64,000 bases of DNA, from NCBI GenBank assembly GCA_963736855.1, contig CAVTQK010000015.1:320001-384000 (forward strand). Reading direction: 5' to 3'. The position numbers were made by a program, and so were the translations under genes. The notes under the pieces are model-generated. The model saw only the letters and a program-made list of their open reading frames with translations. It did no database searches and was not told the DNA's origin. Of the stretch, positions 53,979 through 64,000 are shown piece by piece. This stretch comes from an uncultured delta proteobacterium. Lineage in GTDB: Bacteria > Desulfobacterota > Desulfobacteria > Desulfobacterales > UBA2156. Position 1 is the stretch's first letter; each line of letters begins with the position of its first letter.

Positions 53979-54326
53979 CCACCTTTTCACCTCGTCCGTG
54001 AGGGAGTAAACACCCCGGTTCCATCCGATTGTTTCCATGAACCGATCCCCAACCGGCTTGGGCATCCGGATTTTAGCAAGCTCTTTTGCCTCTTCGGAAT
54101 TTCTTCGGATGAGATAGATTACCGGCTCAGCCTCCCATGTGTTAATGACGAAATAGAAACTGACATCTTGCTTGGAGCGGATCACGTAATTTCCCCGAGC
54201 CCAGTTATTTCCCCACTCCAGATAGAGCCTGACTGCATCTTCATGGGTCATGTTCCAGTCGATGGCATTAACCAGGGTTACATCCTTTGCGATATCTTCC
54301 AGTTGCATCATCATTTGATCTCCCAT
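53952..54326 (-). CDS. DVU0772-family protein
   Basis: IDWNMT.EDAV.LYLEWGNN, YFVINTW, LIRRNSE; family recalled, not searched. Confidence 0.8.
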   Translation of the reverse strand: MGDQMMMQLEDIAKDVTLVNAIDWNMTHEDAVRLYLEWGNNWARGNYVIRSKQDVSFYFVINTWEAEPVIYLIRRNSEEAKELAKIRMPKPVGDRFMETIGWNRGVYSLTDEVKRWLMEILKSN

Positions 54327-54361
54327 CTTTCAATGAATCCATTGGCTTTGGCAGTTAAGTA

Positions 54362-54377
54362 AGCAAATATAATGCCA
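54362..54377 (-). promoter_or_regulatory. Sigma54 -24/-12 promoter
   Basis: TGGCAT-TATAT-TTGCT on the minus strand, ~35 nt upstream of the DVU0772-like ORF. Confidence 0.75.
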
Positions 54378-54772
54378 TTAATTCTTTTTGTTTCTGTTCT
54401 AACCGTCCGGCATTTTGTTCTTAAATAAGCTGGATTTTGTTAAAAAAGTGTATCATGATACAAAAATGTCTTATTATAAATAGAACATATACATTATCAA
54501 ACGATTTCAAGGTCTTTTTAACGATTGAAAGTTATCGATGTCTTTTTCTGTCTCATAAATAGACATCGGATCATCGAAACGGAAAATTCAAAAACCTCAA
54601 GAGGATACGATTTTTTCCGAAAAAACCCGCTTTTCCATGGGAGTTACATTTCATTTTCAGGTGTCCCTTAACCATTTTTCTCAATCTTAATGGACAGATA
54701 ATAAAACCATGAATTCCGACAACCTGACCACCTGCCATATAAATGAGCGGTTTTAGCCCAGATCGGAAAATC

Positions 54773-54788
54773 TGGCACAAAAATTGTA
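54773..54788 (+). promoter_or_regulatory. Sigma54-like promoter of the rubrerythrin operon
   Basis: TGGCAC-AAAAA-TTGTA; the -12 GC is replaced by GT. Confidence 0.55.
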
Positions 54789-54894
54789 TTAAACTTTATT
54801 ATGAAATATTTGGCAATCCGAAGTAATTCTCTTTTCCGGGCCTTTGAAGTGGCCAAAACTCTATTCTTTTCAATTTTTTGAGGACCATTTTGCT

Positions 54895-55107
54895 TTGAAA
54901 CGTTGCGACCATAATATCCAAGAGACGTTTCAGCTGGCGGACCGAATGCTCGATCTGGCCAATAAAGGGGATGCCGAGCGAGAGGATGTGGGGTGTGGGA
55001 TCCTCTATGGCGTTTTAAGAGATTCGGCCTATAAACTTAAAAAATTGGCCGAAAAGGAAAAACAGGCGCATATCCAAAAAGGTTGGTGGAAGCAAAGGAA
55101 TCGTTGA
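54895..55107 (+). CDS. Small helical hypothetical protein
   Basis: GAGGA RBS plus TTG; GDAEREDVGCGILYGVLRDSAYKL. Confidence 0.75.
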   Translation: MKRCDHNIQETFQLADRMLDLANKGDAEREDVGCGILYGVLRDSAYKLKKLAEKEKQAHIQKGWWKQRNR

Positions 55108-55150
55108 ATTTTTCAACCCCGATTATAAATCGTTCAAAGGAGGTTGTAGC

Positions 55151-55726
55151 GTGGCAAATCTGAAAGGAACCCAAACAGAAAAAAATCTCTTGACAGCCTT
55201 TGCGGGAGAATCCCAGGCAAGAAACCGATACACCTATTTTGCCGGTCAGGCCAGGAAAGACGGCTACATTCAGATAGCCGACATTTTTTCTGAAACCGCC
55301 GACCAAGAAAAGGAACACGCCAAGCACTTCTTCAAGTTTCTTGAAGGCGGCGAATTGGCCATTGCCGCGGCCTTCCCCGCCGGAACCATCGGGACCACTC
55401 TTGAAAACCTAAGAGCCGCTGCCGCAGGAGAACATCATGAACACACTGAAATGTATCCCGGTTTCGCCAAAACAGCCAGGAAAGAGGGGTTCGAGGCAAT
55501 CGCCTATGTTTTCGATGCGATATCCGTAGCGGAAAAACAGCACGAAAAACGATACATGGATCTCGCCAGAAACATCGAAGCCGGACGGGTTTTCAAGAGA
55601 GACAAACCGGTCACTTGGAGATGCCGGAATTGCGGGTATCTCCACCAGGGGAATGAGGCGCCGGGAATATGTCCGGCCTGCACCCATCCCCAGGCCCATT
55701 TTGAGCTTTTGGGTGAAAATTGGTAA
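55151..55726 (+). CDS. rbr: Rubrerythrin
   Basis: AFAGESQARNRY, EKEH, EKQH, WRCRNCG..CPAC. Confidence 0.96.
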   Translation: MANLKGTQTEKNLLTAFAGESQARNRYTYFAGQARKDGYIQIADIFSETADQEKEHAKHFFKFLEGGELAIAAAFPAGTIGTTLENLRAAAAGEHHEHTEMYPGFAKTARKEGFEAIAYVFDAISVAEKQHEKRYMDLARNIEAGRVFKRDKPVTWRCRNCGYLHQGNEAPGICPACTHPQAHFELLGENW

Positions 55727-55769
55727 TTTTATAAAGCAAGAATAACCAAAAAAAATTAAAGGAGGAATC

Positions 55770-56144
55770 ATGGCCAATCGACTCGAAATTTACAAATGTG
55801 ATATTTGCGGCAATATCGTCGAGGTGCTTCACGGCGGAAAGGGTGAACTCGTTTGCTGCGGCCAACCCATGAAGTTAATGGTCGAAAATACCGTCGATGC
55901 CGCCAAGGAAAAACACATTCCGGTGATCGAAAAGACGACCGGCGGTACAAAAGTGAAAGTGGGCAGCGTCCCTCATCCCATGGAAGAGAAACATTACATC
56001 GAATGGGTAGAGATCATCTCAGACGGCAAGGTCTATCGACAATTCCTCAAACCCGGCCAGGCCCCGGAGGCGGTTTTCAACGTTCAGGGAACTTCCATGA
56101 CGGCTCGGGAGTACTGTAATATTCATGGACTTTGGAAAGGATAA
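55770..56144 (+). CDS. dfx: Desulfoferrodoxin (superoxide reductase)
   Basis: [33 protein letters not shown]. Confidence 0.96.
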
Positions 56145-56149
56145 TCTTC

Positions 56150-56668
56150 ATGATTTCGGAAAAGATTGAATCCGCATTCAACGAACAAATTAATGCCGAG
56201 CTTTACAGCGCCTACCTGTACCTTTCCATGTCGGCGTATTTTAAATCCACCAATCTGGATGGATTTGCCAACTGGATGTACGTTCAGGCTCAGGAGGAGC
56301 TGATGCACGCCATGAAGTTTTATACTTTCATCCATCAACGCGGTGGTCGGGTGACCTTAGGACCGGTAGCAGCCCCACCCACCCATTGGGAGTCTCCTGA
56401 GGCTGTATTTAAAGAGGTTCTGGCCCATGAGCAAAAAGTCACAGGCCTGATTCACGGTTTGGTGGAGACCGCTCTACTCGAGCACGACCATGCCGGAAAT
56501 ATCTTCCTGCAATGGTTTGTGACGGAGCAGGTGGAAGAAGAAGAAAGCGCCAACTCCGTACTTCAGAAGTTGAAGTTTCTCGAGGGGGCAAAGGGCGGGC
56601 TTTTTATGATCGACCAGGAACTATCCCAGAGGACCTTCACCCCTCCGGGGGCGGAAGCCTCTACATAA
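56150..56668 (+). CDS. ftnA: Non-heme ferritin
   Basis: EQINAELYSAYLY, QEELMH, HEQKVT, LQWFVTEQVEEE. Confidence 0.94.
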   Translation: MISEKIESAFNEQINAELYSAYLYLSMSAYFKSTNLDGFANWMYVQAQEELMHAMKFYTFIHQRGGRVTLGPVAAPPTHWESPEAVFKEVLAHEQKVTGLIHGLVETALLEHDHAGNIFLQWFVTEQVEEEESANSVLQKLKFLEGAKGGLFMIDQELSQRTFTPPGAEAST

Positions 56669-56872
56669 AGTCACTGAATCGAGGCGGGACTCGCCAGGCC
56701 ATTCTTCATCGGTGCACTGCGAGTTCCGCTTTTAAAGCGTCTGAATAAAACCGCAGCGAATCTTCGGCGTGAGGATTTTCTAAGACCTCGCTAACCCACG
56801 GTCCCGCCACAGCGGGACAGGGAAGGTGCTCGCTATTGCGGTTCAGCCGACGCCGTAAAGGAGGAAAATACC

Positions 56873-57037
56873 ATGAACAGCTGGAAATGTGGCAACTGCG
56901 GCTATACTTTTGAAGCCGAGAATCCCCCCAACGAATGTCCATCCTGCAAACAGATGTGTGAATTTTTGAACAATACATGTTATACACCCGATTGCGCGGC
57001 CCAAGGAATAGACCAGAGAATTGGAAAAAAGGAGTAG
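56873..57037 (+). CDS. Rubredoxin-like small protein (54 aa)
   Basis: Below the ORF cutoff; AAGGAGG RBS; MNSWKCGNCGYTFEAENPPNECPSCKQMCEFLNNTCYTPDCAAQGIDQRIGKKE. Confidence 0.88.
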   Translation: MNSWKCGNCGYTFEAENPPNECPSCKQMCEFLNNTCYTPDCAAQGIDQRIGKKE

Positions 57038-57042
57038 CCCGC

Positions 57043-57480
57043 ATGTCAAAAGCACTGATCGTTTATGTATCTCGGACAGGAGAGACCCATGAAATCGGGA
57101 ACCTCATTGCGGAAGGTCTGAGGATGTCCGGTATCGAAACCTCGGTTTTGGAGGCAAAAGCCATCCAAAAGGAATCGAATCTGGAAGGGTATGAAGCCCT
57201 AGTTCTTGGCTCGGCCACTTATCATGGAGACATGATGCAGGGTATGAAAACACTTCTGTTCATGGCTGAAAAGGCCAAACTCGAAGGAAAAGTCGGTGCC
57301 GCCTTCGGAGCATTTGGATGGAGCGGAGAGGCGCCCGATCGCATTTACGATACCATGCAACACATCTTTAAGATGAGAATGGTCGGCCAACCCCTGAGGC
57401 TGAAGTCAAGCCGATTACAAGGCGGAGTCAAGGCCGCCCAGGACTACGGAAAAGAGATCGCTAAAAAAATAGGAGCGTAG
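57043..57480 (+). CDS. Flavodoxin-domain protein
   Basis: YVSRTGET, LGSATY, AFGAFGWSGEA. Confidence 0.92.
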   Translation: MSKALIVYVSRTGETHEIGNLIAEGLRMSGIETSVLEAKAIQKESNLEGYEALVLGSATYHGDMMQGMKTLLFMAEKAKLEGKVGAAFGAFGWSGEAPDRIYDTMQHIFKMRMVGQPLRLKSSRLQGGVKAAQDYGKEIAKKIGA

Positions 57481-57541
57481 ATTTTAAGTTGGTTCTTATA
57501 TCAGTTGAACTCTTATCTTGAAACCTTACAAGGAGGAAGCA

Positions 57542-57727
57542 ATGACAACCCCCCAACATTGTCCCGGATTTCATGGATTTAAAAATCTCAAGTCATTTAC
57601 TTGTAAATGTCCAAAGTGCGGTAAGGAAAAAGAGATTTTTTCAGACGAATTTGATAAAAAACATGTCTGTTCCGGGTGTGGAAAGGAAATCGACTTCACC
57701 CAGTGCACGCTGATCGGCCAAGCCTAA
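57542..57727 (+). CDS. Small Cys-rich zinc-ribbon protein
   Basis: AAGGAGG RBS; HCPG..CKCPKCG..EIFSDE..CSGCG..C. Confidence 0.8.
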   Translation: MTTPQHCPGFHGFKNLKSFTCKCPKCGKEKEIFSDEFDKKHVCSGCGKEIDFTQCTLIGQA

Positions 57728-57947
57728 GGTGTTCGGCGTATTGCCGTATCCCTTGAGGTCGGCCCAGGATCCTAACTCTTTTTAACATGGGATCCCTCGA
57801 ATCAATTTCGTCATCGGCGTTGGATTAGGGGGGAAACCATGAAAGGAAAGTTTTATTATAAAGATGCCCTTGCCGTTGAAAGGCAAAAGCTCTTTTTGGA
57901 AAATATTCACGGATGACCATATATCGGAGTTGGAAGCATATCCATGG

Positions 57948-58313
57948 ATGCTTTTTAAAATGCGCTCGATCAAACCATTGAGTCTGACGTTTCTTTTTTT
58001 TGCTTTGATTCTTGGTTCGGGATCGGCAGTCGATGCTGAGAATAAGGGAGCCAAAGAAATCTTGCTCAATGGCGGTACCAGCGGTCCTGTTCCTTTCCCC
58101 CATCAACGCCATCAAGAAATTATCGGAGATTGTATGGTCTGTCATAGCCTTTTCCCGCAGCAATCCAGAGCCATTGATGAACTTAAAAGGCAGGAAAAAT
58201 TGGCTAAAAAACAAGTGATGAACCAGTCGTGTACCCAATGCCATCGGGCAAAACAAGCGGCCGGCGAATCAAAATACGGCCCGATTACCTGTTCCCAGTG
58301 CCATCGAAAGTGA
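57948..58313 (+). CDS. Triheme cytochrome c3/c7-family protein
   Basis: Signal peptide, VPFPHQRH, CMVCH, CTQCH, CSQCH; start 57948 or 57960. Confidence 0.9.
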   Translation: MLFKMRSIKPLSLTFLFFALILGSGSAVDAENKGAKEILLNGGTSGPVPFPHQRHQEIIGDCMVCHSLFPQQSRAIDELKRQEKLAKKQVMNQSCTQCHRAKQAAGESKYGPITCSQCHRK

Positions 58314-58320
58314 ATCGAAC

Positions 58321-59304
58321 ATGAGGATTCTCGGTATTCAAGGCAGCCCCCGGAAAAAAGGAAATACCCGGTTTTTACTCGATCTGTTTCTTGAGGAAGC
58401 CCGAAAATTAGGGGCAACCACCCAAGTCATTGACGTGGATAAACGGAATATCATGCCATGCAAGGAGTATACCGTTTGCGAGAAAAAAGGCTTCTGTCCA
58501 ATCGACGACGATATGAAAAAAGAGATTTACGCCCTTCTAAGAGAGGCGGAAATGGTCGTGCTGGCCACACCTATTTTCTTCTATAATACCACGGCTCAGC
58601 TCAAGGCCCTCATCGACCGGTGTCAGACCCTCTGGGCCCGTAAATACAAACTCAAGCTGATCGATCCGGGACAAAAATACCGAAAGGGATTCCTTTTGGC
58701 TTTGGGCGCTACCAAGGGGGCCAACCTTTTTGAGGGGGTCAAACTCACGACGAAATATTTCTTCGACGCCATCGGCTCCGGTTTCAACGGCAGCCTGACA
58801 TACTCCCGGATCGAGCATCTCGGGGATATGGAGAAGCATCCGACCGTTCATGAAGATGTTCAAAGAGAAGTTCAAAGTCTGCTATCCGGTATGACTGGCC
58901 GAAGACGGATCCTTTTTGCCTGCAAGGAAAACGCCTGCAGGAGCCAGATGGCCAGCGCCTTCACCCAATACCTGGCTGGAGACCAAATAGAGGTATTAAG
59001 CGCCGGGACTCAACCTGCGGAAATTCCCAACCCTATGATGATCGAAGCGATGCAGGAAAAGGGGATCGATATGGGCTTCCGAAAAACGAGGCGACTGAAC
59101 GAGGGAATTGATTCTTTAGAACCGGAAGTGATCATTACCATGGGGTGCGGTGAAGAATGCCCGTATATTCCGGGCGTAAAAATGGAAGACTGGGATCTTC
59201 CGGATCCGGCCGGTCAATCCATCGATTTCATGCGACAGGTCCGGGACGAGGTTGAAAAACGGGTGGTCGCGTTGATACAACAGGTATCCGACGGGATCCT
59301 TTAA
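58321..59304 (+). CDS. Fusion of an Isf/NADPH-dependent FMN reductase-like domain and an ArsC/LMW-PTP domain
   Basis: [21 protein letters not shown]; then [32 protein letters not shown]. Confidence 0.9.
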
Positions 59305-59336
59305 TAAATCCAATTGAAGGGAAAGGAGAGAAGGCA

Positions 59337-59498
59337 ATGGCTCGATACGTTTGCACCATTTGTGGCTATGTGTACGATCCGGCACAAGGCGATCCGGACA
59401 GCGGAATCAAACCCGGGACCAAGTTCGAGGATCTGCCTGATACTTGGGAATGCCCGGTCTGTGGGGCTTCCAAGAGCGACTTCGAGAAAGAGGAATAG
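59337..59498 (+). CDS. rub: Rubredoxin (53 aa)
   Basis: Below the ORF cutoff; [53 protein letters not shown]. Confidence 0.97.
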
Positions 59499-59623
59499 CC
59501 GTTTCAAAAAGCAAAGAATGCCCTTTTTGCCGCAAGGTTTGTGGCGCAAAAAGGGCATTCGATCATTTTGGAATGGCCGCCATTCCATTTCACTAATAAC
59601 CGCCTTAAAGTAAGGAAAGGACC

Positions 59624-60817
59624 ATGAAACCCATCGAAATCGCCAAAGATATCTATGACGTCGGCGTCACCGATTGGAATATCCGGGATTTTCACGGTTA
59701 TTCCACTTATCTGGGAACAACCTACAACGCTTTTCTGATATTAGACGAAAAGATTGTTCTCATCGACACCGTCAAAAAGGAATTCGCGGACCAATACCTG
59801 GATCACATTGCTCAGGTTATCGATCCGAAAAAAATCGATATCGTCATCAGCAATCACACGGAGATGGATCACTCCGGTTCCCTGCCCAGAGTCATGCACC
59901 GTATCGGGGAAGATAAACCGGTCATCTGCTCCAAGATGGGACTTAAAAATCTTTCCCTGCATTACCGTCAAAAGTTCAACTATAAAGACGTGGAAAACGG
60001 AGAAATGCTCTCCATCGGTAAGCGGACCCTGACCTTCCTGGAAACCCGGATGCTCCACTGGCCCGACAGCATGTTTACCTATATCAAAGAGGATGGGATC
60101 CTCATTTCCAGCGATGCCTTCGGGCAGCATTATGCCGGCTGGCAGAAATACGACGATCAGATCGGCGACGCCATTATGGCGCACGCCAAGAAATATTTTG
60201 CCAATATCCTGCTTCTTTACAGTCCCAAAATACTAAAGCTTGTCGAAACCGTCACCGAAGCGGGTTTGAATATCCGTATGATCTGCCCGGATCATGGCAT
60301 TATATGGAGGAAAGACCCCAAAAAGATCATCAACGCCTATGTCGAATGGAGTCAACAGATACCTCGAAAGAAGGCACTCGTGATCTATGATACCATGTGG
60401 CACAGCACCGAAAAGATGGCAGAAGCCATTGCCGATGGGCTGATCTCGGAAGGGATCGACACGACCGTCATGCATCTCCGGAAATGGCACCGAAGCGATA
60501 TCATGACCGAGGTTTTAGATGCCGGCGCGGTGATCGTAGGATCCCCCACCCTGAACAACGGACTGTTTCCCACAGTGGCCGATTTCTTGACCTATATGAA
60601 AGGGCTGAAACCCAAAAACAAGATTGCCGGCGCTTTCGGATCCTATGGCTGGAGCGGCGAATCGGTCAAGTTCATTCATCAGGAGCTTGAATCCATGAAG
60701 TTTAATGTCATGGAACCCGGAATGAGAATTCAGTATGCACCGGATCCTGAAGGAATCAAATCCTGCACCGAATTCGGGAAACAGATAGGTCAAAAGCTCA
60801 AAGCCACGACACCCTAA
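59624..60817 (+). CDS. fprA: Flavodiiron protein (FprA / rubredoxin:oxygen oxidoreductase)
   Basis: GTTYNAF, HTEMDHSG, HWPDSM, DAFGQH, PDHG, C-terminal flavodoxin domain. Confidence 0.96.
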   Translation: MKPIEIAKDIYDVGVTDWNIRDFHGYSTYLGTTYNAFLILDEKIVLIDTVKKEFADQYLDHIAQVIDPKKIDIVISNHTEMDHSGSLPRVMHRIGEDKPVICSKMGLKNLSLHYRQKFNYKDVENGEMLSIGKRTLTFLETRMLHWPDSMFTYIKEDGILISSDAFGQHYAGWQKYDDQIGDAIMAHAKKYFANILLLYSPKILKLVETVTEAGLNIRMICPDHGIIWRKDPKKIINAYVEWSQQIPRKKALVIYDTMWHSTEKMAEAIADGLISEGIDTTVMHLRKWHRSDIMTEVLDAGAVIVGSPTLNNGLFPTVADFLTYMKGLKPKNKIAGAFGSYGWSGESVKFIHQELESMKFNVMEPGMRIQYAPDPEGIKSCTEFGKQIGQKLKATTP

Positions 60818-60853
60818 AGAGATATTCCAGGAAAAGTACATAAGCAGGCCGGC

Positions 60854-61045
60854 ATGAAGATTCCCGTCGTCGAGCTGAGCGAATGCATTCTCTGTGGCGT
60901 CTGCGTAGACGTCTGCCCGGAGGTCTTTTTACACAACCCGGCGGATTACATCGAGGTGGCCTCTATGAAATATTACCCAGAGGAAGAGGTGAACGAGGCC
61001 ATCAAGAATTGCCCTGCCCGATGCATTTTTTGGGACAAGGAATAA
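60854..61045 (+). CDS. Single-cluster ferredoxin
   Basis: CILCGVCVDVCPEVF..AIKNCPARCI. Confidence 0.92.
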   Translation: MKIPVVELSECILCGVCVDVCPEVFLHNPADYIEVASMKYYPEEEVNEAIKNCPARCIFWDKE

Positions 61046-61113
61046 CGAGACGGCATGTCGGAACCAACCCAAGGATGTGTCTTTCACGGAAAAAATTCAG
61101 GCACTAGGCGATC

Positions 61114-61794
61114 ATGAAAGCATTCAAAGATCAGATTGCCAAACTTCTCGAAAGCGATCCCTTTGAAAACGGGCTTTCCCAAATCCTGAATATGCCTCCG
61201 CGACGGGTGATCAACCCTCTTCTCTCTTTTTTATATAGCACCCGGGAAGAAATCCGATGGCGTACGATTACCGCCATTGGAGCCTTGGTGGCTGACCAGG
61301 CCGACATGGACCTGGAAGGGGCCCGGGTGGTGATGCGCCGACTCATTTGGAATCTCAACGATGAATCCGGCGGAATCGGCTGGGGATCCGCAGAGGCCAT
61401 GGGAGAAATATGCGCCAAAAGCGAACGCCTCGCTTGCGAGTTTGCCAAGATCCTTGTTTCTTATATCGATCCGAAGTGTAACTTTATCGGGAACGAAACC
61501 CTGCAAAGAGGTCTGTTGTGGGGCATCGGCCGAATCGCCCAGGTCCGTCCGGAGCAACTTTCAGGAGTAGCCGTCCTTTTGATTCCATTTTTCAATGCCG
61601 AAGATCCCATCCTTAGGGGGCTTGCCGCCTGGGCGTCTTTTTCGTTGAAAGATCCCCTTCTGGCACCTTATCTTGCCGCATTATCCGAAGATATGTCATC
61701 CATCACCCTTTTCATTAACGCTAAACCGAAAACGATGCGGATCAAAGATCTATCTTTATTAGAGGCAGAAAAAGCAAAGATGTATAATCGCTGA
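61114..61794 (+). CDS. HEAT-repeat protein (DVU0298-like)
   Basis: ARVVMRRLIWNLNDESGGIGWG.AEAMGE; family recalled, not searched. Confidence 0.8.
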   Translation: MKAFKDQIAKLLESDPFENGLSQILNMPPRRVINPLLSFLYSTREEIRWRTITAIGALVADQADMDLEGARVVMRRLIWNLNDESGGIGWGSAEAMGEICAKSERLACEFAKILVSYIDPKCNFIGNETLQRGLLWGIGRIAQVRPEQLSGVAVLLIPFFNAEDPILRGLAAWASFSLKDPLLAPYLAALSEDMSSITLFINAKPKTMRIKDLSLLEAEKAKMYNR

Positions 61795-62075
61795 AGAGTC
61801 AATTGATAAGAACTATCTATTACACGGACGGACTGAACACGGGAAAGAGCCTAGTGGCCGCCCTGCGCAGCAAGATCCCGGACCAACTCGACGCCGGGGA
61901 TCAGATTCTGCTGCCGCAGCTCGACCTGACCGATCCCTACCACCGCGCCAAGGCCAAATCCTGAACTTGGACATTCTCTTCCAGAAAGGTAACGATGCCC
62001 ATTCTTCGGGGAAGCGATAAAAGGGCCTCATCCCTCGACAGAACGCTGTGTAACATTGCCCTATTACCATCGCCT

Positions 62076-62104
62076 TTGACACAAAATAATCCTTTCCATA
62101 TCAT
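62076..62104 (+). promoter_or_regulatory. Sigma70 promoter of the yeeE-like pair
   Basis: TTGACA-N17-TATCAT. Confidence 0.7.
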
Positions 62105-62238
62105 CACTTTATACAACTGCAAGTCCTTAGTCGGACGTCTTTTCGGCCATTACTGCCATCGGGATTCGAGGTCGCGGTTTTGGAATGGATTGGAGCCGCG
62201 CTGAGCAGAGGAAAACCAAGCCAAGAAAGGAGGCACGG

Positions 62239-62766
62239 ATGGAACCAGAGAACGGCAAAAGAGGGTGGAATCCCTATGTTGCCGGCGCGCTGACAGGGCT
62301 CCTGCTGGTCTTTTCCGTCTGGTTTACGGGGAAGTACGTAGGGGCATCCACAACCTTCGTCAGGTCCGCCGGTTACATCGAAAGGATCTTTAACGAGGAA
62401 CGGGTGGCCCAGATCGCTTACTTCAAGAAGGAACTCCCAAAGATCGATTGGCAGTTTCTGTTTGTCATCGGCATCTTCTTCGGGGCCCTCGCGGCTTCGA
62501 CAACTTCCCGGTCCTTCCGCTGGCAGGCCGTCCCTTCCCTCTGGGAAGGCCGTTTCGGACCGACTGTCCCGAAGCGGGCCGTGATCGCCTTCATCGGCGG
62601 CGCCGTGGCCATGTTCGGAGCCCGCCTTGCCGATGGGTGACCGAGCGGACACGGACTGAGCGGTTCGCTTCAGTTAGCAGTCAGTGGCTATATCTCTTTG
62701 ATCTGTTTTTTTGTGGGCGGGATTGCAATGGCCCGCAGTCTCTACCGAGGAGGGAATAAATCATGA
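62239..62766 (+). CDS. YeeE/YedE-family sulfur transporter subunit, probable selenoprotein
   Basis: WNPYVAG..FGARLADG-U(TGA 62638)-PSGHGLSGSLQLAVSGYISLICFFVGGIAMARSLYRGGNKS; extended stop overlaps the next ATG; AAGGAGG RBS before 62239. Confidence 0.9.
62654..62675 (+). promoter_or_regulatory. Candidate bacterial SECIS element
   Basis: ACTGAGCG-GTT-CGCT(T)CAGT hairpin with a bulged U, starting ~14 nt after the UGA. Confidence 0.75.
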
Positions 62767-63290
62767 GCGAGCTCGTCTATGGTTTCATAACCGGGATCAT
62801 TTTCGGCTTTCTCCTTCAGAAGGGGCGGGTCATCCGCTATGACAAACAGATTGGCGCCCTGCTCCTCGAGGATATGACCATTGTCAAATTCATGCTGACC
62901 ACGATTCTTGTGGCCATGGTGGGGGTCCACCTGCTTGTGGATCTGGGGTTGGCAAAGCTCTCCCTAAAGCCGACGATCCTCGGGGGGAATGTCATCGGAG
63001 GTCTGATCTTCGGACTCGGTTGGGGCCTTCTCGGTTACTGTCCCGGCACCCAGATGGGCGCCCTTGGCGAGGGGAGATGGGATGCCATCTGGGGAATCAT
63101 TGGCATGATCACCGGAGCGGCGCTTTTCGCCGAGGTTTATCCCGGACTGAAGGCGACGGTTCTGACTTGGGGGGATTACGGCAAAGTGACAATCCCCCAG
63201 CTTCTGGGAATCAACCATTGGCCCGTTATTGCGGTCATGGTCGTGCTGGGTCTACTCCTGTTTAGATGGTTTAAAAAGAAAGGCCTCTAA
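62763..63290 (+). CDS. YeeE/YedE-family sulfur transporter subunit
   Basis: GIIFGFLLQ, GGLIFGLGWGLLGYCPGT, GEGR.D. Confidence 0.92.
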   Translation: MSELVYGFITGIIFGFLLQKGRVIRYDKQIGALLLEDMTIVKFMLTTILVAMVGVHLLVDLGLAKLSLKPTILGGNVIGGLIFGLGWGLLGYCPGTQMGALGEGRWDAIWGIIGMITGAALFAEVYPGLKATVLTWGDYGKVTIPQLLGINHWPVIAVMVVLGLLLFRWFKKKGL

Positions 63291-63320
63291 ATCGGAATAC
63301 GCACACCTATTGTTCAATGC

Positions 63321-63350
63321 GGAACGGCCGGGATGATCCCGGCTGTTTCC
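63321..63350 (+). terminator. Terminator-like hairpin
   Basis: AACGGCCGGGA-tga-TCCCGGCTGTTT after the yeeE pair. Confidence 0.6.
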
Positions 63351-63520
63351 CCGCCTCTCTCGGCCAACTTTCGCTAAGAGCGTTGCCGATACCCTATGCC
63401 AAAAAGGTTTGAATGGCGACGGTAGCGCGGGGTACTGCCGTTGAATTTCTTGAGGCCAAACTGAAATAATCCTTCAGGCTTTCCCAACCGCAGTGGCTTA
63501 AGTCGGATTACAGCTTGTGG

Positions 63521-64000
63521 TCAAACAGAAAATAGCGCCTGAGGATCTTGGGGACACTCATCACCAGATGGAAGTGCAGGACGGCTTTGATGACATTGCC
63601 GCATAGCCATTTGCCGAACTTTGAGTTCCTGGATCTCACCGGCTTCCAGGTCGGGTTTCAAGGTCTTTTCCTCCCTGCCCCAAATAGAACCTGACCGGTA
63701 CATTCCTGAACTCCTTTTTACCCATATTCTGAATCTTTGCCGTAACGATAACCTCTTCCCCCAATGAAGGGGTCATGTTATTCACATTCAACTCAGTGAG
63801 CACTAGGTCGGTGGGAGGTTCCGGCGCTCGGGGAGGTTCGATGGGGCGGACGGAAGGTAGCGGCAGAAGAGGTGCCGTCGGCTTCATGGAGGGCTCCTTC
63901 CGGACAACTTCATGATGTTTGATGAAGATCTCCTGACTTCCGGCATTATCGTCCGTCTTGGATTTCTGGATTGCCCCGTCCGGATTGACATGGGCGATTA
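63521..64000 (-). pseudogene. 3' part of a multi-CARDB (Ig-like) surface protein, frameshifted and apparently truncated
   Basis: Open from the window edge: IAHVNPDGAIQKSKTDDNAG, Pro-rich linker, TDLVLTEL..GEEVIVTAKIQNMG..VPVRFYL; frame changes near 63680. Confidence 0.65.

Follow-up and report, generated by a model that had tools for sequence, protein, structure and literature searches.

An in-frame TGA almost certainly read as selenocysteine in a half-size YeeE/YedE transporter gene of an uncultured delta proteobacterium

Towards the 3′ end of the window, by which we mean the whole stretch of 64,000 nucleotides that was analysed, lie two adjacent genes of the YeeE/YedE family, here called gene A and gene B, and the first of them contains an in-frame TGA. 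The locus thus raises the question of whether this codon ends the protein or is read as selenocysteine (Sec), and of what such a residue would do in a membrane transporter. The preliminary description had placed the TGA at the position of the family Cys, and its coordinates hold: the codon lies within the motif FGARLADG-U-PSGHG, at the invariant Cys of the family, and homologs have either TGA or a Cys codon there. The 41 further open codons and the ATGA overlap with the partner gene that had been described were both confirmed in the sequence, the overlap (62763-62766) joining the end of read-through gene A (TGA 62764-62766) to the ATG of gene B (62763), and the proposal that the tail encodes another hydrophobic helix agrees with the AF2 model, in which the tail forms the last long helix. 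Read through from its ATG at 62239, gene A encodes 175 aa, the same length as gene B, with a single TGA in the motif GUPSG. The ordinary Cys ascribed to the partner is encoded by TGT within GYCPG. In the public collection, the product of gene A is 133 aa long and ends at the TGA, and its cluster has 10 members, each of 132-151 aa; the reading proposed here would correct this annotation, since proteins that stop at the TGA lose the essential residue and the last helix.

Table 1. Positions of the two genes and of their candidate signals in the window
Feature	Position	Strand	Basis
Sigma-70-like promoter candidate, TTGACA-17-TATCAT (11/12 match)	62076..62104	+	consensus match only; 135 nt 5′ of gene A
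Shine-Dalgarno AAGGAGG, gene A	62227..62233	+	sequence; also upstream of homologs L048, L068 and L074
Gene A, predicted PmpA/YedE1E2-type half-size YeeE/YedE subunit with Sec134	62239..62766	+	PF04143, 84.3 bits (cut-off 27)
In-frame TGA, predicted Sec134 at the YeeE Cys293 position	62638..62640	+	homolog codons and Sec machinery of the genome
Putative bacterial SECIS hairpin, loop GUU (62663-62665)	62654..62675	+	local fold -9.4 kcal/mol; one bulged U on the 3′ side
Shine-Dalgarno GAGGAGG, gene B, within the read-through part of gene A	62747..62753	+	sequence
Gene B, predicted PmpB-type half-size subunit, 175 aa, Cys93 (codon 63039-63041)	62763..63290	+	PF04143, 61.8 bits

The promoter scan gave 2 sites in 2 kb, compared to 1.1 expected from shuffles, and upstream regions of the homologs showed no conserved motif except the ribosome-binding site. 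Rfam gave no match to an upstream regulatory RNA at E up to 1 within 54000-64000, and the sole match of the terminator search was inside gene B, below chance. Directly 3′ of the DVU0298-family gene upstream, an open stretch of about 57 codons (61791-61964), which may be a small gene or what is left of one, has no common in-frame start codon near its beginning and no paralog in the genome.

The codon was compared in a homolog set of 90 loci including this one, of which 88 cover the site. TGA was found in 49, TGC in 31 and TGT in 8, with no other codon, and removal of a duplicate left 87 distinct loci, 48 with TGA and 39 with Cys. TGA/Cys pairs, the pattern sought among homologs, thus extend to 88 of 88 covering loci, and the hairpin discussed below is conserved in all 48 distinct TGA loci. 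We regard this conservation as decisive sequence evidence for a predicted Sec. On a quick tree, the TGA label needs 4 changes, compared to 28.8 when shuffled, and seven Cys members from Desulfovibrionaceae, all without the hairpin, fall within TGA branches at nodes with a support of 82-85. In Syntrophorhabdus, one member has TGC but keeps a full SECIS-like hairpin (L058:4400-4445); it is sister to a TGA member and probably represents a recent Sec-to-Cys change.

A sequencing error was also considered: an independent public contig (run X1) covers the entire stretch and differs from it by 19 substitutions, all of them outside the TGA and the hairpin, and so likewise reads TGA rather than TGC or TGT. 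Two RNA runs hold contigs that are short pieces of this or a related sequence, from which level and strand are not readable. In a sample of the host phylum, a B-like gene was found in 139 of 401 genomes, and TGA occurs in 36 of 86 gene A matches from 80 genomes chosen for strong gene B matches. Twenty of those TGA-flagged loci were examined; 18 have the TGA at the Cys site, 17 of which fold the same hairpin, and the other 2 are natural stops. The Sec form would therefore be common in the host phylum rather than a rarity of five genomes. Within the host family its distribution is patchy, since the gene A query had no match in 5 congeners and 6 other genomes.

The preliminary description had reported a hairpin at 62655-62674 with a loop starting with G and a bulged U. 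The hairpin and the G of the loop stand (Table 1), while the bulged U is not a conserved feature, as homologs show U, C or no bulge. Bacterial SECIS elements, as quoted in PMC13188914, have a loop of 3-9 nt with G in one of the first two places, a stem of 4-16 bp, a distance of 16-37 nt from the UGA and a minimum free energy of -7.5 or lower. With a 3-nt loop, G as its first base, a 9-bp stem and a distance of 22 nt, the hairpin agrees with all four structural constraints, and its local fold energy also lies within the published model. Using a test that requires at least 4 pairs with bases 26-27 in the loop, which was defined after the TGA set had been seen and applied to loci whose kin are not independent, the hairpin was found in every one of the 48 TGA loci, compared to 4 of the 39 Cys loci and 3 of the 16 Cys loci with an identity of at least 49%. 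Mean hairpin energy was -10.6 in TGA loci and -3.7 in Cys loci. Over 40 distinct rows, pairing in the structure amounts to 91.4%, a value attained in none of 500 shuffles and compared to 24-48% in slid controls. Pair 18:37, for example, is AU in 14 rows, GC in 12, CG in 6, GU in 2, UA in 2 and unpaired in 4, although such covariation counts are inflated by kinship. All 48 TGA loci use AGC for the Ser at +7, compared to 8 of 16 close Cys loci, while Gly at +3 and +5 in TGA loci is encoded by all four codons.

Fold z-scores around the UGA of gene A were 0.12, -0.47 and -0.86, and -1.79 for the isolated hairpin. A competing hairpin (~62643-62670), which pairs bases of the first codons after the UGA, is the minimum-energy fold in the 63-nt window and in both 50-100 nt windows from the UGA; with a ribosome at the UGA, those bases would be covered and the SECIS thereby freed. 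As a background, all six frames of this genome hold 4163 TGA-ended open frames of at least 120 codons, of which 1512 stay open for at least 35 codons further, 26 are followed by such a hairpin and 19 show both. Since the open tail and the hairpin are thus each weak alone, the case for Sec rests on conservation. Eight of the 19 background frames with both features cluster at about 735000-787000 of contig C15 in this genome (G000:C15), a region that looks very GC-rich and may be foreign or mis-binned DNA.

The machinery for Sec incorporation, whose presence had been named as a check, is found in the genome with selA, selB, selC and selD. Profile matches for selA (617 bits), selB (381) and selD (374) are all over their cut-offs, a tRNA-Sec is present, and selD carries its own TGA. 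Family searches in this genome also gave four mvhD-like and four fdhA-like genes with a TGA in a plausible motif and a hairpin behind it; three of the 12 TGAs listed from these searches look like frame breaks rather than Sec codons. Among the other genomes, selB was found in 44 of 47 with TGA, the remaining three, in which only selB was looked for, being assemblies whose completeness is not stated, and in 18 of 23 tested with Cys. Since selB is also frequent in Cys-carrying genomes, it does not discriminate between the two groups.

Could the TGA instead be a true stop, a sequencing error, or a codon read as Cys or Trp without a SECIS? Public gene callers do stop there, an open tail of 41 codons is common by chance, and the query had no match in the 11 other genomes of the host family. 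On the other hand, TGA recurs in 47 other distinct loci with a conserved protein downstream, the independent contig shows the same codon, the hairpin tracks the codon, and a stop would delete an essential residue together with the last membrane helix, so we consider these explanations very improbable. We are almost certain that the TGA of gene A encodes selenocysteine, at a site that YeeE requires for sulfur transport, and the sequence comparisons leave us nearly sure that translation would continue from UGA 62638 into the last helix and couple to gene B.

Sec-containing YeeE/YedE proteins have been in selenoprotein lists since at least 2016. Reviews, PMC9312934 among them, have an entry for such a family (PF04143, GUxSG, one Sec), and the supplement of PMC5029168 counts 5 organisms for it. 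Since the catalogues list the family, gene A is a mis-annotated member of it and not a new kind of protein, and the earlier caution that similar proteins may already be annotated was well placed, the family being catalogued as a predicted selenoprotein with the same GUxSG motif. Gene A shares with it a PF04143 score over cut-off, the GUPSG motif and one Sec, and differs only in organism and in breadth, with dozens more genomes here; that the catalogued representative, WP_012471001.1, is of the same half-size form is suggested by the motif. No experimental study of a Sec-containing YeeE protein was found in a literature search that covered few subscription journals. The term YeeE/YedE is absent from the main text of the GOS paper cited for the family, and deep-Sep and BSepDB (one long supplement) gave no YeeE/YedE match.

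The two-gene transporter proposed at the outset is supported by the PF04143 matches of both genes and by a half-to-half match to the single-chain YeeE of S. thermophila (TsuA/YeeE; 6LEO, 6LEP and 8J4C). Residues 69-169 of gene A align to 238-328 of 6LEO (E 7e-5) with U134 on Cys293, and residues 7-119 of gene B align to 5-122 (E 1.5e-9) with Cys93 at Cys91, the Cys22 position being without a Cys. The AF2 model of gene A (pLDDT 81.9) has helices at 12-30, 36-51, 71-89, 110-130, 135-144 and 148-170, and places residue 134 in a loop before the short helix. VIA-align ranked 6LEP and 8J4C best for this model (6LEP 187-328: Z 7.9, rmsd 2.4, 137 aligned), compared to Z 4.9 for the next unrelated fold; Foldseek gave nothing at E 0.001, with a YeeE match at E 6.1. 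Alignment and model thus indicate that gene A is the C-terminal half and gene B the N-terminal half of YeeE. According to PMC7449682, Cys293 contacts thiosulfate on the periplasmic side, and C91A and C293A fail while C22A works. Very probably the two halves come together as a single YeeE fold, in which Sec134 takes the place of Cys293 on the periplasmic side and Cys93 that of Cys91 in the centre. PMC11582611 describes an equal half-to-half match for PmpA/PmpB and proposes a heterodimer, and together with the match of the halves we infer one here. The gene B Cys is invariant in 26 of 26 aligned partners. Of the 88 loci, 87 have a partner next to gene A, each with its Cys, and the remaining locus is at a contig end. 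Two apparently fused or altered forms were set aside: L055 resembles an in-frame A-B fusion, with an N gap at the joint, and L047 has a frame change in the gene A tail, so neither is evidence of an A-B fusion.

The nearest described systems are PmpA/PmpB of Serratia and YedE1E2 of Cupriavidus pinatubonensis (PMC11582611, PMC10812762), likewise two adjacent half-size genes, each with one essential Cys position matching Cys293 or Cys91 of YeeE. They are about 130 aa, with four membrane helices each in the PmpA/PmpB type, compared to 175 aa each for genes A and B, in which Sec replaces one Cys, the host is anaerobic and the window has no adjacent persulfide dioxygenase gene. The likeness is drawn from the half-size gene arrangement and the Cys positions, and the tested YedE1E2 proteins come from aerobes. 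In PMC10812762, which reports the only transport tests of a split pair that we found, with proteins of C. pinatubonensis and S. meliloti, YedE1 and YedE2 import zero-valent sulfur together and not alone, both Cys are essential and ROS falls; a Cys-persulfide relay was suggested. PMC12998232 ties other YedE genes to sulfur disproportionation. Since zero-valent (sulfane) sulfur is what the closest split-type pairs with transport tests take up, thiosulfate is not our first guess for the substrate.

We therefore favour, with a probability of roughly 60%, that the pair imports sulfane sulfur by a covalent Sec/Cys relay, the sulfur being cleared by a reductase or rhodanese and possibly serving redox defence. 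The two genes would form an operon encoding an inner-membrane transporter of the PmpA/PmpB (YedE1E2) type. SelB, bound to the hairpin 22 nt downstream, would bring Sec-tRNA to UGA 62638, and translation would continue through the short helix and the last membrane helix before coupling into gene B. The selenolate of Sec134 would then attack the S-S bond of sulfane sulfur (polysulfide, S0 or persulfide), from where the sulfur would be handed on covalently, first to Cys93 and then to a thiol in the cytoplasm, to be cleared by a CoA-disulfide/persulfide reductase or a rhodanese, possibly as part of the redox defence of an anaerobe. The pKa of Sec is given as 5.2 (PMC13188914), which would make it a poor hydrogen-bond donor and an anionic nucleophile better suited to S-S attack; a selenolate at the substrate-contacting site thus favours the covalent model over the hydrogen-bond relay of PMC7449682. 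A Sec at a transport site would also offer a spectroscopic handle (77Se NMR, Se X-ray absorption).

Neighbouring genes point towards this proposal, within limits. No rhodanese, TusA/YeeD, reductase or other sulfur-handling gene was found beside the pair in the 64-kb window, and the closest CoA-disulfide-reductase-like gene of this genome is on another contig. In other genomes, such a gene lies directly 3′ of the pair at 14 TGA loci, 2 Cys loci and 2 of 18 further TGA loci, and a rhodanese-fused reductase lies two genes upstream of the pair at a third further TGA locus. These reductase neighbours score under NCBIfam cut-offs and are mostly from Syntrophorhabdaceae, and are therefore not independent. 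Distant Cys pairs sit after MBL-rhodanese or tandem-rhodanese genes. The CoA-disulfide-reductase-like flavoprotein conserved directly after gene B at other loci is 459-500 aa as called (L053, L058, L060-L063, L065, L067-L070, L072-L074, L096, L155 and L157). Oxygen-defence genes also recur. Upstream in the window, a cluster for oxygen defence and redox functions (55151-61794) encodes a rubrerythrin, a desulfoferrodoxin, a ferritin-like protein, a flavodoxin-like ORF, a c3/c7-type cytochrome, an FMN reductase fused to an ArsC/LMWPc domain, an FprA-like protein, a ferredoxin and a DVU0298-family protein. Rubrerythrin was found near 5 TGA loci, and di-haem peroxidase, catalase and a TGA-containing PrxU flank L172-L174, while at most TGA loci the neighbours are unrelated.

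Three other functions were weighed, all of which take Sec as real. In the first, an unlikely but still sizeable alternative, the pair would be a thiosulfate channel like TsuA, in which the ion travels intact along the two chalcogen residues and no covalent chemistry takes place. The fold and the two essential positions are as in S. thermophila YeeE (PMC7449682), and the genome carries dsrA, so thiosulfate could be useful to the host. However, TsuA/YeeE is one polypeptide of 330-350 aa in which three Cys are conserved, whereas the protein here is split, with the C-half gene first and no Cys22, and genes A and B score far below the TsuA models (46.6-55.6 of a cut-off of 400 and 31.2-39.1 of 645), although these penalise half-size proteins. 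YeeD/TsuB, which E. coli TsuA requires according to PMC11582611, is not adjacent in the window, and the S-H...S bonds to the anion described in PMC7449682 would be ill served by a selenolate.

Somewhat less likely again is that the pair is no bulk importer but a membrane redox or signalling relay, either a sensor like SoxT1B or a shuttle for sulfur or electrons in oxygen defence. SoxT1B is described as a signal transducer in PMC11582611, and the pair lies 1.4-7 kb downstream of the rubrerythrin, desulfoferrodoxin, ferritin-like and FprA-like genes, in keeping with the rubrerythrin and peroxidase neighbours noted at other TGA loci. Most loci have no defence neighbours, though, and no regulator gene is recurrently adjacent. 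A promoter candidate of its own precedes the pair, which may therefore lie near the upstream cluster by chance. Import of a selenium compound appears improbable. Other YedE proteins have been linked to selenium transport (PMC9312934, PMC11582611), and the selenium-associated YedE proteins share with genes A and B the superfamily and a selenium link; those proteins are full-length and thought to handle Se, whereas genes A and B are Sec-containing halves that score far under the cut-offs of TIGR04112 (38.4 of 200) and NF033796 (31.4-34.2 of 350). A separate TIGR04112 gene, albeit frameshifted, lies on contig C11 of the genome, and no sel gene was found among the recurring neighbour clusters scanned. 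A Se importer whose own synthesis depends on Se would also fail in Se starvation.

That TIGR04112 gene (L019:912-2224) encodes a full-length YedE lying in two frames (270 and 209 bits), which reflects a frameshift or an assembly error, and is followed by a short ORF labelled TusA/YedF-like by look, with no family match at a strict threshold. Just 3′ of the Sec pair at L172 and L173 is a PrxU peroxiredoxin with an in-frame TGA (NF040737, 407 bits; L172:4097-4825 and L173:4173-4895), and a di-haem peroxidase-like gene lies just before the pair at both loci.

Sec is also predicted in the other half of distantly related split pairs. The first sign of a TGA in a B-type motif was a contig end matched in the search of public contigs. 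At least 11 B-like matches with TGA were then found among those listed for the phylum sample, in which 10 matches are unlisted; 9 of the 11 have the TGA at the Cys91 site, as GL-U-PG or GY-U-PG in three families, and 2 have it elsewhere. All 9 loci show a hairpin as well, and their A halves have Cys (L140-L148, e.g. L144:3555-4091, L141:3547-4107 and, on the minus strand, L143:3552-4094). These motifs fall outside the single row (GUxSG) that the review table gives for the family. No pair with two Sec was found among the 88 loci, 15 regions examined for Sec in the B half and 20 further TGA-flagged loci. Separate recruitment of Sec at the Cys293 and Cys91 sites would mark both as covalent nucleophiles, and a wider, tentative proposal, which we hold to be possible rather than probable, is that split YeeE/YedE proteins are membrane-embedded sulfurtransferases in which the Sec form of anaerobes feeds a reductase-cleared persulfide pool for oxygen and peroxide defence. 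If true, natural Sec/Cys, Cys/Sec and Cys/Cys pairs would allow the covalent relay to be tested against the published hydrogen-bond model. Four genomes (those of L149, L151, L152 and L153) contain two split YeeE/YedE pairs within 3-8 kb, and three of them (L149, L151 and L152) combine a Sec pair with a Cys pair.
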